Position numbers and translations under genes: made by a program. Source: an uncultured Candidatus Saccharibacteria bacterium (GTDB taxonomy: Bacteria > Patescibacteriota > Minisyncoccia > Minisyncoccales > Staskawiczbacteraceae). Taken from it: a DNA stretch of 64,000 nt. Numbering within the stretch: the stretch's first letter is position 1; each line of letters starts with the position of its first letter. The stretch spans positions 9,708 to 73,707 of the forward strand of contig CAYRHW010000004.1 in the NCBI GenBank assembly GCA_964424305.1, in the 5' to 3' direction. The notes beneath the pieces were generated by a model. That model saw nothing but the letters and a program-made list of their open reading frames with translations. It was not told where the DNA came from and searched no databases. Shown in pieces: positions 3,209 to 38,116 of the stretch.

Positions 3209-3280
3209 TACCCTATTTTATCACAGTTGTATTTTATTTAAAACAAAAAGGTGGATTGCTCCACCTCCCTTGTTTACATA

Positions 3281-13891: not shown

Positions 13892-14326
13892 TCAACTGTT
13901 AGTTTTATTAAACCAATCTTCTTCCTCCGAGATTCTTGTTGGAAAAAAATCTAACTGACTTTCCGGAATATTTAATTTGCTTCCATAAATTTTTGCTTCC
14001 ATCCATGTCAACTTATTATTTGGATCCAATGTGAAATAATTATTTTTAAAAACAACGATCAATGTTTTCCCTTCGTCGAAAACATGAAAATAAAAAGGCT
14101 TATCAGAAACCATTGAATATTGAATCTCCGTAATTGCGTCATCAACCGAACCCAAAAGATTAACAATGTGTAATCGCCAATTAATTGGCTCTGGTAAAAA
14201 TTTGGTTCGCAAAATTCTATGTTTGTTTAATATTTCCTTGTTCGCCAAACTTTCTTCTACAATTAATGCATGCATATTATTTTCCTTTTTTACCACTAAC
14301 ATTTTTATGCTCAAGCCTCGCTGCAT
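13892..14326 (-). CDS. hypothetical protein (true start may be an internal Met at 14302 or 14275)
   Basis: ORF only; no recognised motif. Confidence 0.4.
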   Translation of the reverse strand: MQRGLSIKMLVVKKENNMHALIVEESLANKEILNKHRILRTKFLPEPINWRLHIVNLLGSVDDAITEIQYSMVSDKPFYFHVFDEGKTLIVVFKNNYFTLDPNNKLTWMEAKIYGSKLNIPESQLDFFPTRISEEEDWFNKTNS

Positions 14327-14494
14327 TCCCCCAGAACCGATTCACTGTTTTTGGCTTTGGAGCCTTCCAAATATTTTTATTCTTTTTATTTAAATTAGAA
14401 AAGCTATTTTTCATATTTTTGTTTATTATTACCTTAATTCTACGCGATAAATGGCTTCTTGCAAGATTAAATATTTTCTGTGGATAAACTGCCA

Positions 14495-14523
14495 TTGACC
14501 ACTTGTCTTTAAATTACTACAAT
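14495..14523 (+). promoter_or_regulatory. sigma70-like promoter TTGACC-17nt-TACAAT
   Basis: The -35 TTGACC is at 14495-14500, followed by a 17-nt spacer and the -10 TACAAT at 14518-14523. Confidence 0.6.
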
Positions 14524-14529
14524 TGAATC

Positions 14530-14857
14530 AGGATAGAGTTCCTCTTTTCTATCCAACCAATTCAGCAGGGAAGCTCATTAAAATCACAACAAGTTATTTC
14601 TAGATAACTAGTTCACGACTCAATAACACACGCCAAACAAATTGCGATAACGCAATCCTACAAACGGACTCTTACGTCCAGAGGCGAACACGCCAACAAT
14701 ATACGAGACACTGCGAGTAATCGCAACAATAAGCTGCCTAAGCTCGAGAAATAAATAATTAAAAAACCAGCTTAAACACAAGTCGCAAACTCATCAGTCA
14801 TCTAGAAAAAACACACGAGGCCCCAAGGACTTACAACAAGAAGTTCCGGGGCTTTTT
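14530..14857 (+). ncRNA. candidate ~330-nt A/C-rich small RNA (unassigned family)
   Basis: Bounded by the promoter above and the plus-strand terminator at 14820-14857. I found no ATG on the plus strand between about 14530 and 14820. It has repeated CAACAA-type motifs and short hairpins. Confidence 0.5.
14820..14857 (+). terminator. intrinsic terminator of the candidate sRNA
   Basis: GCCCCaaGGA...UCCGGGGC stem followed by UUUUUU. Confidence 0.6.
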
Positions 14858-14863
14858 TCGTAC

Positions 14864-14886
14864 AAAAAAACCCGCGTAACGCGGGT
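14864..14886 (-). terminator. intrinsic terminator downstream of galU
   Basis: Minus strand reads ACCCGCGuuaCGCGGGU followed by UUUUUUU. Confidence 0.75.
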
Positions 14887-14902
14887 CGGAAGCACAATAA
14901 AA

Positions 14903-15781
14903 TTAATAAATTTCCTTTAAATACTTTTTCAGCATTGATCCATAGCGTGGATCCTTCATCGCAAAATACATAAAAGATTTTAACCATTTTTCTTTATCAC
15001 CACACTCCAACCACTCACCCTTAAATTCATAACCATAAAGTACCTTACCATCATCCAACATTGTTCTAAAAACTTCTGCTAAGATTACTTCCCCCTTTTT
15101 AGATGGTTTCGCCTTTTTTATATATTCAAAAACTTCTGGTGTTAAAATATATTTTCCAACAACCACCAAATCAGACAAAGCCTCTTCGATGGTTGGCTTT
15201 TCAATTATGTTTTTTACTTTATATAATCGGTTGGCTATTTTTTCATTCCCAACGACGCCATAGGCTGACAATTTTTCTTTCGGTAATTTTTTAAGTGCCA
15301 TAACGGGAGACCCACAAGTTTTATATATTTCCATTAATTGAGACAAAGCCGGTGTCTCGCTGTCAACAATATCATCGGCAAATAAAACACCGACTGGCTC
15401 GTCCCCAACAAATTTTGCCGCCTGAAGAAGGGCGTGCCCATCCCCCATTGGTTTTTTCTGGACAACGAAATGCACGGTTATATCATTAAAAATTGCTTCG
15501 AAATCTTTAAGTTCTTTTAATAGATTCTCTTTATTTCTTTTCGACAAAATCGTTTCTAGTTTTTCTGACTTTTTGAAATAACTCAAAATCATTTTTTGAG
15601 CTGGACTAATTACAAAAATAACTTCCGTGATTCCGGAATCTTTGGCTTCTTGGATAATATATTGAATAACTGGCTTATCCACTATTGGGAAAAATTCTTT
15701 GGATAGAACCTTAGACAAAGGTAAAAACCTAGTGCCCAATCCCGCCACCGGGATGATAACTTTTTTTATTTCATTACTCAT
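14903..15781 (-). CDS. galU: UTP--glucose-1-phosphate uridylyltransferase
   Basis: KKVIIPVAGLGTRFLPLSK motif. Confidence 0.9.
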   Translation of the reverse strand: MSNEIKKVIIPVAGLGTRFLPLSKVLSKEFFPIVDKPVIQYIIQEAKDSGITEVIFVISPAQKMILSYFKKSEKLETILSKRNKENLLKELKDFEAIFNDITVHFVVQKKPMGDGHALLQAAKFVGDEPVGVLFADDIVDSETPALSQLMEIYKTCGSPVMALKKLPKEKLSAYGVVGNEKIANRLYKVKNIIEKPTIEEALSDLVVVGKYILTPEVFEYIKKAKPSKKGEVILAEVFRTMLDDGKVLYGYEFKGEWLECGDKEKWLKSFMYFAMKDPRYGSMLKKYLKEIY

Positions 15782-17280: not shown

Positions 17281-17393
17281 TTTCTTAATACTTCAGTCTA
17301 CCTCCATACTAGAAAAAATCAAGGTGGTTTTACTTTTCCCCACATCTGTATTATACTCTTAGGAGCTTCCCACTATATGGAAAGGGCTTGAAA

Positions 17394-18017
17394 ATGGCTG
17401 AACAGAAGAGAAGCTGGTTCTTTCAAAACCTAGCAAATTTTGTTACTGTTCTCGGAATAATCACCTCTCTCTGGTTTTTAATCCTAGGAATAAGTTACCC
17501 CGACATGCTTTGGTTGGTATTGGTTCTTGGCATCGTGACTGGCCTAAGCGATTTTGTCGACGGCAAGCTTGCCCGTTATTTAAACATCCGAACGGCATTC
17601 GGCGTCACGATGGATAGACTGCGAGATAAGATCTTTGTTTGCTCGGCATTTGCCCTACTTTTTTGGCAATACTGGCCTGAGGATCAAAACTTCATCATTA
17701 CTACATTCACTGAAACTCTTGTTATTCTAATGATCCTTCTTGAGGCTTTGATCCTGGTAACTATGATTTATGGACTCTGGAAGAAAATAGATGTCAGCGC
17801 CGGCCAAAACGGAAAGATAAAGATGTTTGGGGAGTTCTTCGCGATAGCGTTTTGGCTAATTTCAATCACCATCGATAAGTACTGCTCTACCACATCAATC
17901 AATTACATAATATATCTTGTGGACGCCATACTCCTAGGCTCTGTCTACTTTGCGATCAAGGGCTTAATAATCTACTGCCAAAAATACACCGAGACTCAAC
18001 AAAATATTAAAAAGTAA
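17394..18017 (+). CDS. CDP-alcohol phosphatidyltransferase
   Basis: DFVDGKLAR...G...D..RD matches the D(x2)DG(x2)AR...G(x3)D(x3)D motif. The ATG at 17394 lies just inside the listed TTG start. Confidence 0.8.
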   Translation: MAEQKRSWFFQNLANFVTVLGIITSLWFLILGISYPDMLWLVLVLGIVTGLSDFVDGKLARYLNIRTAFGVTMDRLRDKIFVCSAFALLFWQYWPEDQNFIITTFTETLVILMILLEALILVTMIYGLWKKIDVSAGQNGKIKMFGEFFAIAFWLISITIDKYCSTTSINYIIYLVDAILLGSVYFAIKGLIIYCQKYTETQQNIKK

Positions 18018-36063: not shown

Positions 36064-36759
36064 TTATTCCTCTGTTGGTGGCTGGATCTTGTCTTTTAAC
36101 TGTTGCCAAGTCATTTGCTCATCTTTGGTCAACTTACAAACCACCTTATACTGACAATAATTACATTGCGAAACCGAGGGGTGCCCCTCTATTCTCTCGG
36201 GAATGATATTAGATTCAATCTGCTTCTTCAATACATTAAGATCTGCTATTAATGATTCTGCTACTTTTGGATTATACATCACTAAAAATTCTTTTAATTC
36301 CAACCGATCCTTATCTACATATAGGAGAAGACCCTTGGGAATTTTTAAATAGTGTAGATAAAGTTGAAGCTGCAGAATGTTTTCGTCTTTTGGTTTCTGC
36401 AGGGTCCTAAAAATTATACTATTCATGCTTTTAATATCTAAAACAAACAGCTCTTTGCCATCCGACAAAACAGCATCCGCCCTACCGTGCACGATCTCCT
36501 GCGGAGGTATATCAACCTCAGAGGCAACAACATGAATGTCTCGTGTAGATAATAGTGGCTTCATTATCATTCTATGCATGTGCTCACCGTGATCGAATAA
36601 CCTTAGAAGGGCGGGCTCGAATTCTTTCCTCGGTGCATTCTTGAATTTAAAGAAAATCTGACGTGGACATCTTCCAGCCTCAGATATGTAAAAACTAGTT
36701 TGATTTTTCCTCAATTTCTCACTGTCTAGATAAAACTTGTCGATTATTTCTTTTAACAT
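36064..36759 (-). CDS. Cas4-like PD-(D/E)XK nuclease with 4-Cys cluster
   Basis: N-terminal GRCPRQ Cys, D...LDIKS (D/ExK), QLQLYLHY (QxxxY), C-terminal CNYCQYKVVC. Confidence 0.7.
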   Translation of the reverse strand: MLKEIIDKFYLDSEKLRKNQTSFYISEAGRCPRQIFFKFKNAPRKEFEPALLRLFDHGEHMHRMIMKPLLSTRDIHVVASEVDIPPQEIVHGRADAVLSDGKELFVLDIKSMNSIIFRTLQKPKDENILQLQLYLHYLKIPKGLLLYVDKDRLELKEFLVMYNPKVAESLIADLNVLKKQIESNIIPERIEGHPSVSQCNYCQYKVVCKLTKDEQMTWQQLKDKIQPPTEE

Positions 36760-36796
36760 ATTGCGTATTCTACCATAAGATTAACTTGCGACCAAG

Positions 36797-38116
36797 CTAC
36801 CACGTTAAATGTAATTCGGAAGAAGCAAGAAATTGCTTCTGTCTATTTAATATCTCCCCTCCGGAGATTTTTCTTAATTCTTCACCTGCTTTTACTGAAG
36901 ACTTTTTGAGTTCTTTATCAACAATAGATGCCTTCTCATCCACACAAAATGCCATGTCATTTATGGCTACCAGCTTCAACCCAGCTAAGGAGCTCAACCT
37001 CGATAGGGCAACGTAACCCATTCCTTCAACAAAACACTTAGATAGATCAATTTCAGCATTATCTAAATTCATGCCCTGACTTTTATGTACTGTTATCGCC
37101 CAGGCCAATCTTAGTGGTATTTGATTTATCTTAGCGATAATCTTTCCTTCTTCATCCACCGTCCAACTAGAAGATTTTGCCACAATGCTTTTCCCAGAGA
37201 TAGTTTCTACAATCGGCAAACCGTCATAATCAAAGCCAGTCACCTTCCCCTGGGTTCCATTAACATACCCCACTTCAAAATTGTTCTTTATGAACATCAC
37301 CTTGGCTCCCTCCTTAAGTATTAATCTTTCTGGGGCTAGACAACTTTTCTTTAAAGCCGCAACAACTTTTTGTTTCCCCGAAGAAGTCATGTGGAAAATG
37401 AACTCTTCACTATCAATTTTCATTAATTCTTCGCTATTAACAGAATCTACATCTATATTATGGGTATACAATTTCGTCGGTGCTGCTAAATGATCCTTGA
37501 ACTGTCCCCTATCATTCAACATTCTCTTCGACTCTCCAATGTTGCTATTTCTAATATGATTTAAAAGACTGAATAGATACTTATCCTTATGCCTATGTTG
37601 TTCTTCTAAATAGCAGATTTTCATATCCATACTCTTCCAGGAACCAGACTCAAAAACAAGCTTTGATTTTCCATCCCTGTTTATAGGAGGCAATTGGAAA
37701 AAGTCCCCGGAGCAGATGATCTGCATTCCACCAAACGGTTCAAAACTCTTTTTAAAATACTGACAAGTACGGTCTACCGCATCAAACTGGGCGGCATTAA
37801 GCATTGATATTTCATCAATGATTAGAATATTTGTATTCCTAAAATGCTTTCTTAAATATGGCTTCTTCATTAACCCCCTAATATCTTTATCGGTAAGCCT
37901 TTCTTTAATTCCTAAGCCAGACCAAGAATGGATTGTTACCCCATTCATGTGGGTCGCTGCAATTCCAGTAGAGGCAGTTACTGCTACTGGATGGTGATTC
38001 TCCTTCAAATATTCTATATACTTGTTTAATAAAAAAGTTTTACCGGATCCTGGCGGTCCGGTTAAGAATACATTGTACCCCATTTTCATTATGTCGAGCG
38101 CTTCTTCTTGGGTCAT
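36797..38116 (-). CDS. Pif1/RecD-family SF1 helicase
   Basis: Walker A GPPGSGKTF, IIDEISM (Walker B), VHKSQGM (RecD/Pif1 motif V). Confidence 0.8.
   Translation of the reverse strand: MTQEEALDIMKMGYNVFLTGPPGSGKTFLLNKYIEYLKENHHPVAVTASTGIAATHMNGVTIHSWSGLGIKERLTDKDIRGLMKKPYLRKHFRNTNILIIDEISMLNAAQFDAVDRTCQYFKKSFEPFGGMQIICSGDFFQLPPINRDGKSKLVFESGSWKSMDMKICYLEEQHRHKDKYLFSLLNHIRNSNIGESKRMLNDRGQFKDHLAAPTKLYTHNIDVDSVNSEELMKIDSEEFIFHMTSSGKQKVVAALKKSCLAPERLILKEGAKVMFIKNNFEVGYVNGTQGKVTGFDYDGLPIVETISGKSIVAKSSSWTVDEEGKIIAKINQIPLRLAWAITVHKSQGMNLDNAEIDLSKCFVEGMGYVALSRLSSLAGLKLVAINDMAFCVDEKASIVDKELKKSSVKAGEELRKISGGEILNRQKQFLASSELHLTW

Follow-up and report, generated by a model that had tools for sequence, protein, structure and literature searches.

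We examined a 64-kb stretch of contig CAYRHW010000004.1, referred to here as the window, in which galU lies on the minus strand (14903-15781), followed by an intergenic interval and a minus-strand gene for a very basic protein of 45 amino acids. The interval very probably holds a real non-coding RNA (ncRNA) gene of about 329 nt (14530-14858, plus strand), convergent with galU. A sigma-70-type promoter, TTGACC-17-TACAAT (14495-14523, plus strand), matches the consensus at 10 of 12 positions; it headed the list of four such sites in a scan of the 10-20 kb region and was the only one of the four in that 10-kb scan with a 17-nt spacer. The start of transcription is predicted at about 14530, after an A/T-rich discriminator. 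The unit closes with an intrinsic terminator (14817-14858, plus strand), a long G+C-based hairpin, GAGGCCCC...GGGGCUUUUUU, followed by U6, which folds at about -18 kcal/mol and was overlooked by the terminator scanner because its loop is longer than 8 nt. The terminator of galU itself is separate from the RNA (14866-14890, minus strand; stem 14887-14869, then a T-run) and marks the convergent layout.

A first-pass annotation of the window had proposed this promoter and a hairpin with U6 on the plus strand, and both are present at the positions that it gave. It had also described the transcript as lacking ATG and as strikingly rich in A and C. The region 14530-14857 contains neither ATG nor GTG, its sole TTG meets a stop after two codons, and it lies inside the longest ATG-free plus-strand stretch of the window (652 nt; the second longest is 501). 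The A+C fraction is 0.64, ranking 13th of 6368 sliding windows, with the window-wide maximum at 14551. Plus-strand signals are indeed few in the window (10 of 85 crude open reading frames, ORFs), and the two short perfect hairpins at 14641-14656 and 14712-14725 agree exactly with their description. The observation is real and well beyond chance.

Homologues were sought on contigs encoding ever more distant GalU proteins, drawn from related Patescibacteria metagenomes. Nine distinct versions of the element were obtained, including that of the window, with lengths of 323-579 nt. They lie at 14530-14858 in the window and at 4738-5071 in L012, 419-741 in L223, 5932-6294 in L014, 5954-6288 in L016, 4078-4408 in L020, 3397-3736 in L104, 4799-5250 in L021 and 1510-2088 in L059, where the L numbers are our handles for individual loci. 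The L223 copy was reached through the neighbouring 45-amino-acid protein and the L104 copy by fetching the contig of a GalU relative; the L059 copy was recognised only by reading the gaps between genes. The identical intergenic region is present in ENA and Logan assemblies of the same organism. GalU and its neighbours place the window in the Patescibacteria, and the closest GTDB species representatives by GalU are Candidatus Staskawiczbacteria and 'Saccharibacteria' metagenome-assembled genomes, at 63-67% identity.

All nine elements lie directly downstream of, and convergent with, an ftsZ-galU(-carbohydrate kinase) operon. All of them keep the promoter, a 5'-terminal hairpin (P1), a single-stranded GCUCUUU element, a long-range helix (P2) and the terminator, while the overall sequence diverges to the limit of alignability. 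The family consensus of the promoter is TTGA(C/T)N-17/18-TA(C/T/G)AAT with an A/T-rich discriminator. The element was not found at this site in approximately 75 other GalU loci (58-72% identity), and blastn and nhmmer searches with the RNA gave no further homologues in the GTDB-representative GalU loci L004-L011 and about 80 metagenome GalU loci. A pattern scan of IMG/VR for the motif pair returned 116 chance matches, none of which was confirmed by nhmmer. Locus L053 fits the pattern of a promoter with GCTCTTT and was set aside as an mRNA leader.

The RNA of the window is predicted to fold with a minimum free energy of -81.6 kcal/mol, compared with -47.9 +/- 4.2 kcal/mol for dinucleotide shuffles (z = -8.0). 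P1 (14531-14554) has 8 bp and an 8-nt loop and begins at +1/+2 in all nine homologues; in L021 and L059 it has grown into a branched stem. A further local hairpin, P1b, follows the single-stranded element in several homologues and is not convincing in the window. The 5' strand of P2 (14593-14620), which lies about 60-90 nt from the start across the family, pairs with a 3' strand just before the terminator (14781-14812) in a duplex of -22.7 kcal/mol, and so closes a central domain of several hairpins; 24 bp of this helix are kept in the window, L012 and L223. Within the domain, H1 (AUUGCG-AUAA-CGCAAU, 14641-14656) is identical in L012 and L223, and an unrelated hairpin takes its position in more distant relatives. 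H2 (GGAC-UCUUAC-GUCC, 14666-14679) lies 112-134 nt from the start in seven homologues and 177 nt from it in L059; its stem changes in a compensatory manner among GGAC/GUCC, AGAC/GUCU and GAGUU/AACUC. H3 (GGCG-AACA-CGCC, 14683-14694), which carries the second copy of ACACGCC, is variable. The stem of H4 (UGCGA-GUAA-UCGCA, with a GNRA loop, 14712-14725) is kept in L012 and L223 with changes in the loop; like H1, it is kept among close relatives only. H5 (AAGCUG/CAGCUU around an A-rich loop, 14731-14773) is also variable, with compensatory changes to AAACUAC/GUAGUUU in L012 and AAACUG/CAGUUU in L223.

RNAalifold analysis of the three close relatives recovered P1, the 24-bp P2, H1, H2, H4 and the terminator. 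Nearly all of the substitutions and indels among these three sequences fall in the linkers, H3 and H5, and the helices and two motifs are invariant. In the predicted folds of eight homologues, G makes up 2-11% of the unpaired bases, and A or C approximately 75%.

The distant sequences could not be aligned in register with MAFFT, which gave inconsistent registers for P1. As the RNA was also too long for the covariance-model tool, co-variation was assessed by energy cross-pairing and arm-swap tests. The two arms of P2 from the same RNA paired with a mean energy of -21.0 kcal/mol, compared with -10.7 +/- 4.6 kcal/mol when the arms came from different RNAs (permutation p = 5e-5); the corresponding values were p = 5e-5 for P1 and p = 1.5e-4 for the terminator. 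Counted from the stem base, changes on both sides were tabulated at 7 of 8 stem positions in P1, 7 of 7 in the terminator and 4 of 4 in H2. The observed pairing of 100% was reached by few swaps of the 3' arm (2/5000 for P1, 14/5000 for the terminator and 11/5000 for H2). Because predicted folds supplied the arms, the tests are biased towards pairing; the swap and cross controls remedy this in part and are the meaningful numbers. In silico, the minus strand of the region forms a still more stable fold, but only owing to the promiscuous G-U pairing of G/U-rich sequence. The RNA was assigned to the plus strand because the promoter, the hairpin at +1 and the U-tailed terminator are conserved on that strand. 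The structural part of the first-pass annotation is upheld: an ORF-less plus-strand transcript runs from promoter to terminator, P1, P2 and the terminator are kept in nine homologues, and the helices co-vary. Conservation in relatives had been expected of hairpins or motif spacing; several hairpins and helices are conserved, and the repeated motifs are not.

The sole single-stranded motif common to all nine homologues, RGCUCUUU-N-AAAAYC, is GCUCAUUAAAAUCA in the window (14573-14586, plus strand). Its core reads GCUCAUU in the window and L223, and GCACCUUAAAAA (GCACCUU) in L014. GCUCUUU, or GCACCUU in L014, is complementary to Shine-Dalgarno-like AAAGAG/AAGGAG/AAGGUG, and this pyrimidine-rich element may be likened to an anti-Shine-Dalgarno sequence. 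A second motif, the junction 12-mer AAUAACACACGC (14622-14633, plus strand), lies inside P2, directly 3' of its 5' strand. It is invariant over 11-12 nt in seven of the nine homologues, in aligned 5' regions with an otherwise 47% mean column identity. At the position equivalent to H3, a purine-rich Shine-Dalgarno-like tract (AAAGGAGGUG / AAAGAGGU) is present in L020, L021, L104 and L059. Such internal tracts are able to pair with GCUCUUU (AAAGGAGGUGA in L020, AAAAGGAGGUG in L021, AAAGAGGU in L104, and GAAGGUGA twice in L059); in the window, L012, L014 and L223 the tract is weak or missing. Their sequences hint at self-masking or a pseudoknot. With its own promoter, a Rho-independent terminator, no ORF and a conserved single-stranded seed, the RNA has the class features of a trans-acting small RNA.

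Three further observations concern nearby messages. The window-specific linker insertion CAGCAGGGAAGCUC (14563-14579) is complementary to GGAGCUUCCC (17350-17365), in the 5' leader of a plus-strand CDP-alcohol phosphatidyltransferase gene (17388-18017); the duplex, at -22.7 kcal/mol, was the best among 85 start regions (z about -3). The first codons of the CDP-alcohol phosphatidyltransferase gene in L016 (about 3220-3240) and L104 (about 690-710; both on the minus strand of the locus), which encode MSQWLFKN and MKGWLFKN, contain GGCUCUUUAAAAAU. This sequence has the same sense as the GCUCUUUAAAA of the RNA, to which it is nearly identical, and does not occur in the gene of the window; the likeness may be a coincidence. 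Lastly, the ftsZ leaders of the window (17281-17330), L012, L014, L016, L020 and L021 share a block, CUUGAUUUUUU ... GGGGUAAACUAAAG, upstream of the start codon; the cell-division operon may thus have a regulatory leader that is conserved.

A DnaA-box-like 9-mer, TTATCCACA (TGTGGATAA on the plus strand), lies 7 nt upstream of the -35 element (14479-14487, minus strand). It matches the consensus perfectly and is one of only three perfect boxes in the 64 kb. The box is perfect in the window, L012 and L223, with the 7-nt spacing in L223, and fits TTATNCACA in L014 (TTATGCACA) and L059 (TTATACACA, 6-nt spacing). One mismatch is found in L016 and L104 (TTATCCACT) and in L020 (TTCTCCACA), and the box is degenerate in L021. 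Seven of eight tabulated homologues, and also L223, which was found later, have a box with at most one mismatch at 6-7 nt from the -35. The nucleotides that separate the box from the -35 show no conservation. The distance is kept whatever the divergent neighbour (the 45-amino-acid protein p45, TspO or a 176-amino-acid gene), and the box is therefore assigned to the promoter of the RNA. DnaA would be expected to bind the box at 14479-14487. Two other explanations of the site were rejected: an oriC, as there is one box only and no turn in GC skew, and a CRP/FNR or PhoB-type site, as a second half-site or repeat is not conserved. Across the window, 33 DnaA-box-like 9-mers with at most one mismatch were counted against 18.5 expected, a number reached in 0 of 100 shuffles. 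Five of them cluster at 36311-36944 (36.3-36.9 kb), within two minus-strand ORFs, so that the cluster is no obvious oriC.

A scan of the region against Rfam 15 with Infernal, proposed in the first-pass annotation as a check, matched no family on either strand. On the plus strand there was no match at E <= 10. Sub-threshold matches to OmrA-B (26.6 bits against a gathering score of 40), rseX and leader families proved to be the minus-strand terminator of galU. In seven homologous loci searched at E <= 5, nothing overlapped the RNA except BTnc231 on the opposite strand of L014, a match that clips the terminator at 23 bits against a gathering score of 80.4 (E = 1.6). Rfam searches, at gathering and at permissive thresholds, also gave nothing relevant for five other gaps downstream of galU, and full-text literature searches turned up no description of such an RNA. 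The RNA is a new family of a known kind, the bacterial stand-alone structured ncRNA gene, and is absent from Rfam 15.

The features that first drew attention to the RNA were its repeats, from which the first-pass annotation had drawn an analogy with CsrB, RsmZ and CrcZ. Under such a reading, CA-rich single-stranded repeats (CAACAA, ACACGCCAACAA) between hairpins would titrate an RNA-binding protein. The window copy does contain four exact CAACAA motifs (14587, 14694, 14724 and 14834) against 0.6 expected (p about 0.01), one fewer than the minimum of five that had been claimed, the fifth being CAAACAA. The duplicated unit, ACACGCCAA, is found at 14628 and 14688 as described, and ACACGC, part of the duplicated ACACGCC, occurs twice against 0.2 expected (p about 0.01). 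The A/C-rich linkers, with G nearly always paired in all folded homologues, and the promoter-to-terminator architecture with a poly-U tail are also in keeping with a sponge; CrcZ, CsrB and RsmZ are likewise promoter-to-terminator ncRNAs whose hairpins are parted by single-stranded A/C-rich segments. However, the repeats are not conserved in relatives, and they lie in the fastest-evolving parts of the RNA. CAACAA is enriched in no relative (0-2 copies, as composition predicts; p 0.09-1.0), and the second ACACGCCAACAA unit, together with H3, is absent in the close relative L223 and altered in L012. The many copies of one motif that characterise the known sponges (AAnAAnAA, or GGA in loops) are absent across the family: GGA occurs 1-8 times per RNA, at or below the dinucleotide-shuffle expectation in 8 of 8 homologues tested (p 0.5-1.0), and AAnAAnAA 0-8 times, with no significant value. 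AACAA, (ARN)3-4 and A/C-only runs show no family-wide enrichment beyond dinucleotide composition, with isolated nominal values in L014 and L104 only (p = 0.03 for (ARN)4 in L014, or for A/C-only runs). The only conserved single-stranded motifs occur once each, and these unique motifs and the long-range closing helix are found in the RNA described here and not in the known sponges. A tblastn search with Hfq, CsrA and ProQ queries gave no match in the 64-kb window, a result of little weight for the genome as a whole. Linkers rich in A and C and free of G occur throughout the family; they look like a spacer that avoids mispairing rather than a set of binding sites, and we regard a sponge as quite improbable. 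A ribonucleoprotein scaffold or catalytic core of the OLE, raiA or ROOL sort, with the 12-mer and GCUCUUU serving as tertiary contacts, a protein-binding site or an active site instead of pairing with other RNAs, is a serious alternative, if an unlikely one. It would account for a closed multi-helix domain with an invariant junction sequence, for the gain and loss of peripheral hairpins between lineages (329 to 579 nt), for GNRA loops (GUAA in H4; GAAA/GCAA in hairpins that precede the terminator of L021 and L059) and for the pseudoknot that GCUCUUU might form, in four homologues, with the purine-rich tract of the P2 domain. The interior of the domain is nevertheless poorly conserved, the 12-mer is not found in two homologues, and the pseudoknot partner is missing or weak in four others, the window among them. 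The 45-amino-acid basic neighbour was rejected as an obligate partner, since it is degenerate in L104 and present in L023, where the RNA is absent from this site. The RNA shares with raiA, OLE, ROOL and GOLLD an intergenic, ORF-free, covariation-supported structure with variable peripheral helices. It differs in matching none of them in Rfam, in being far less conserved in sequence, in its restriction so far to one narrow clade and, compared with OLE, ROOL and GOLLD, in being smaller.

The remaining alternatives assign the locus to better-known types of gene or element. A divergent housekeeping RNA (6S RNA, transfer-messenger RNA (tmRNA), RNase P RNA or signal recognition particle (SRP) RNA) missed by the standard models would be compatible with the overlapping size range and the strong promoter. 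However, the 5' and 3' ends are not paired with each other, the former forming the local hairpin P1 and the latter the terminator; the architectures of all four RNAs are therefore excluded. ARAGORN identified only four tRNAs and no tmRNA in the window; the homologues share no tag-like ORF and have no T-arm or CCA. On reading the sequence, neither the RNase P P4 regions CR-I to CR-V nor the SRP helix 8 motif was noticed. The 10-nt string AGUCGCAAAC, in the 3' strand of P2 (14781-14803), is identical to the surroundings of the resume codon in E. coli tmRNA, a match that we take to be coincidental; a tRNA-like domain is lacking, and the short stop-terminated frame that follows it (ANSSVI* in the window, ADSSVI* in L012) has no equivalent in the other homologues. 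As in 6S RNA, a strong promoter drives an ncRNA in which conserved single-stranded regions are flanked by a long irregular helix; unlike the 6S rod with its central bubble, the consensus fold places P1 and the terminator in hairpins of their own, with a junction of 4-5 hairpins closed by P2, and RF00013 was not matched even at E <= 10. Patchiness at this site among close relatives would be unexpected of an essential RNA, although relocation elsewhere is possible, and a housekeeping RNA seems highly improbable. A cis-acting element seems scarcely more plausible, whether a minus-strand leader or riboswitch for the small-protein operon, or a plus-strand antisense or interference device against galU-ftsZ. 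The region does separate the galU terminator from the minus-strand gene that comes next, its minus strand folds more stably, and the plus-strand transcript is aimed at galU. Against this, the minus-strand operon has its own conserved promoter downstream of the element, every homologue carries the promoter, +1 hairpin and U-tailed terminator on the plus strand, and the linkers, if read on the minus strand, would be G/U-rich. The terminator of the plus strand is a strong one, no antiterminator sequence is to be had in the G-poor RNA, and the neighbouring gene varies while the RNA stays. A terminator-type riboswitch was rejected, as nothing in the G-poor RNA competes with the GGCCCC/GGGGC stem and no co-oriented gene lies downstream. 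The least credible explanation, that of a small-protein mRNA or the remnant of a decayed gene, draws on homologues in which an ATG and Shine-Dalgarno-like tracts occur, for example AAAGGAGGUGAUG in L020. There is no ATG or GTG at all in the window and L012, however, no ORF is common to the homologues, and the stems vary in a compensatory way, with indels that may have any length, a pattern that is not codon-like.

The best explanation of the results as a whole, to which we assign a probability of roughly 55%, is a stand-alone structured ncRNA gene of about 329 nt, belonging to a previously undescribed family in a clade related to Candidatus Staskawiczbacteria, with a putative DnaA input and a presumed action in trans. 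Transcription of the RNA would be tuned by DnaA, and hence by replication status, and P1 and the terminator would protect or stabilise its two ends. The strong terminator is expected to end the RNA ahead of the convergent galU. The RNA may then act in trans through GCUCUUU-AAAA and the junction 12-mer, on purine-rich Shine-Dalgarno-like tracts of mRNAs or on a protein, with the fast-evolving hairpins and A/C linkers presumably serving as scaffold and spacer, and not as repeated binding sites. The specific proposal of a seed-based, trans-acting mechanism is tentative.

Several results weigh against this explanation. The element is absent from this site in equally close relatives (L018, with 83% GalU identity; L105, 75%; L023, 73%; L026 and L039), and the family, known from nine sequences in one narrow clade, appears narrow and patchy at least at this position. 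GCUCAUU in the window is less anti-Shine-Dalgarno-like than the element of the relatives, and the 12-mer is absent or diverged in L021 and L059. When compared across relatives, conserved pairing with the translation start regions of ftsZ or galU was not found. A target search over all start regions of the window, and over ftsZ, galU and CDP-alcohol phosphatidyltransferase in relatives, likewise gave nothing conserved, and the pairing with the leader of the CDP-alcohol phosphatidyltransferase gene is not shared by L012, L014, L016 or L104. The assignment of the box is one of consensus identity, and the window contains no DnaA gene or oriC against which it could be calibrated. The transcript ends are predictions, and the bias of the helix tests towards pairing must also be counted here.

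A few short invariant single strands in a fast-evolving body that preserves its helices would fit the pattern of a base-pairing regulatory RNA, for which RNAIII and RsaC would be the nearest analogues. These are large, multi-hairpin regulatory RNAs of Gram-positive bacteria, described in Staphylococcus aureus. Like the RNA of the window, they have their own promoter and intrinsic terminator, measure 300-600 nt with a length that varies by lineage, enclose domains of small hairpins within long-range helices, and carry conserved pyrimidine-rich single strands that could pair with Shine-Dalgarno regions. The RNA described here differs from them in its host phylum, in the DnaA-box-like site of its promoter and in lacking an embedded ORF such as hld and repeated C-rich loops, and has no sequence or Rfam relationship with either. 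Small RNAs linked to the cell cycle, such as Caulobacter CcnA and E. coli DicF, invite comparison because the RNA of the window lies beside the ftsZ operon and its promoter has a site for a regulator of the cell cycle or replication (the DnaA-box-like site). Unlike them, the present RNA is much larger and has no conserved complementarity to the ftsZ start region, and its link to the regulator is conjectural.

The divergent neighbour of the RNA is driven by a conserved minus-strand promoter, TTGCAA-16-TAGAAT (14464-14437). The 45-amino-acid product, MKNSFSNLNKKNKNIWKAPKPKTVNRFWGNAARLEHKNVSGKKGK, is encoded at about 14280-14414 (minus strand, start at about 14414) and has the conserved core K.V.RFWGNA.R.EH.NVSGKK.K. 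It is also found in L012 (5187-5321), L016 (6422-6556), L021 (5335-5469), L014 (6953-7084), L020 (5010-5144), L023 (4464-4598) and L223 (857-994), and has no Pfam match. Gene callers lengthen it to 72 amino acids (start at 14495), overrunning the promoter of the RNA.

Other units were noted downstream of galU in relatives. In L069 (3500-4040, plus strand), a small gene of about 80 codons downstream of galU has the same design as the RNA: its promoter is TTGACA-17-TATAAT, a hairpin lies close to +1, the linkers of its leader are A/C-rich, and its terminator, GGCCCCAAGGAA...UUCCGGGGCUUUUUU, is nearly identical. L069 was rejected as a homologue, since it matches only through this terminator on a small protein gene, and the likeness suggests that such features are a general transcript style in this clade. 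In a relative with 65% GalU identity (L072, 2930-3551; L071, 3380-3844; minus strand of the locus), another ORF-free unit of about 400 nt, in the place of the RNA and convergent with galU, runs from a TTGGCA-17-TATAAT promoter to a U-tailed hairpin. Its 5' end, GCCAAAACCAAAACAACAAACC..., is A/C-rich, and it contains several strong hairpins. This unit matches nothing in Rfam, shows no detectable similarity to the RNA of the window, and may be an analogous or an extremely diverged RNA gene. Structured-looking, G+C-rich intergenic stretches lie downstream of galU in the more distant relatives L093 (3380-3610) and L103 (3392-3638), with no Rfam match at E <= 1.

Much of bacterial diversity belongs to the Patescibacteria (Candidate Phyla Radiation), whose genomes, of about 1 Mb, encode few known regulators. 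To our knowledge, and as the literature searches suggested, essentially no lineage-specific ncRNAs have been described in them. The RNA provides a new family for RNA databases, and also a lesson in method: repeats seen in a single sequence, such as CAACAA, can be lineage noise laid over a real RNA whose functional elements lie elsewhere. Its DnaA-box promoter beside the ftsZ operon, and its Shine-Dalgarno-like and anti-Shine-Dalgarno-like elements, are leads towards greater interest. A more far-reaching interpretation, which we consider rather unlikely, is that the RNA would be the first known member of a class of large structured RNAs new to science, found in ultra-small Patescibacteria, with its synthesis tied to replication through DnaA and acting on translation initiation or the ribosome through the anti-Shine-Dalgarno-like element and the internal Shine-Dalgarno-like tract of several lineages. 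If true, this would link the cell cycle to translation in organisms with very few protein regulators. As an RNA of 330-580 nt with a strong promoter, a conserved fold and a likely DnaA input, it may offer a handle on post-transcriptional or cell-cycle regulation in the Patescibacteria.

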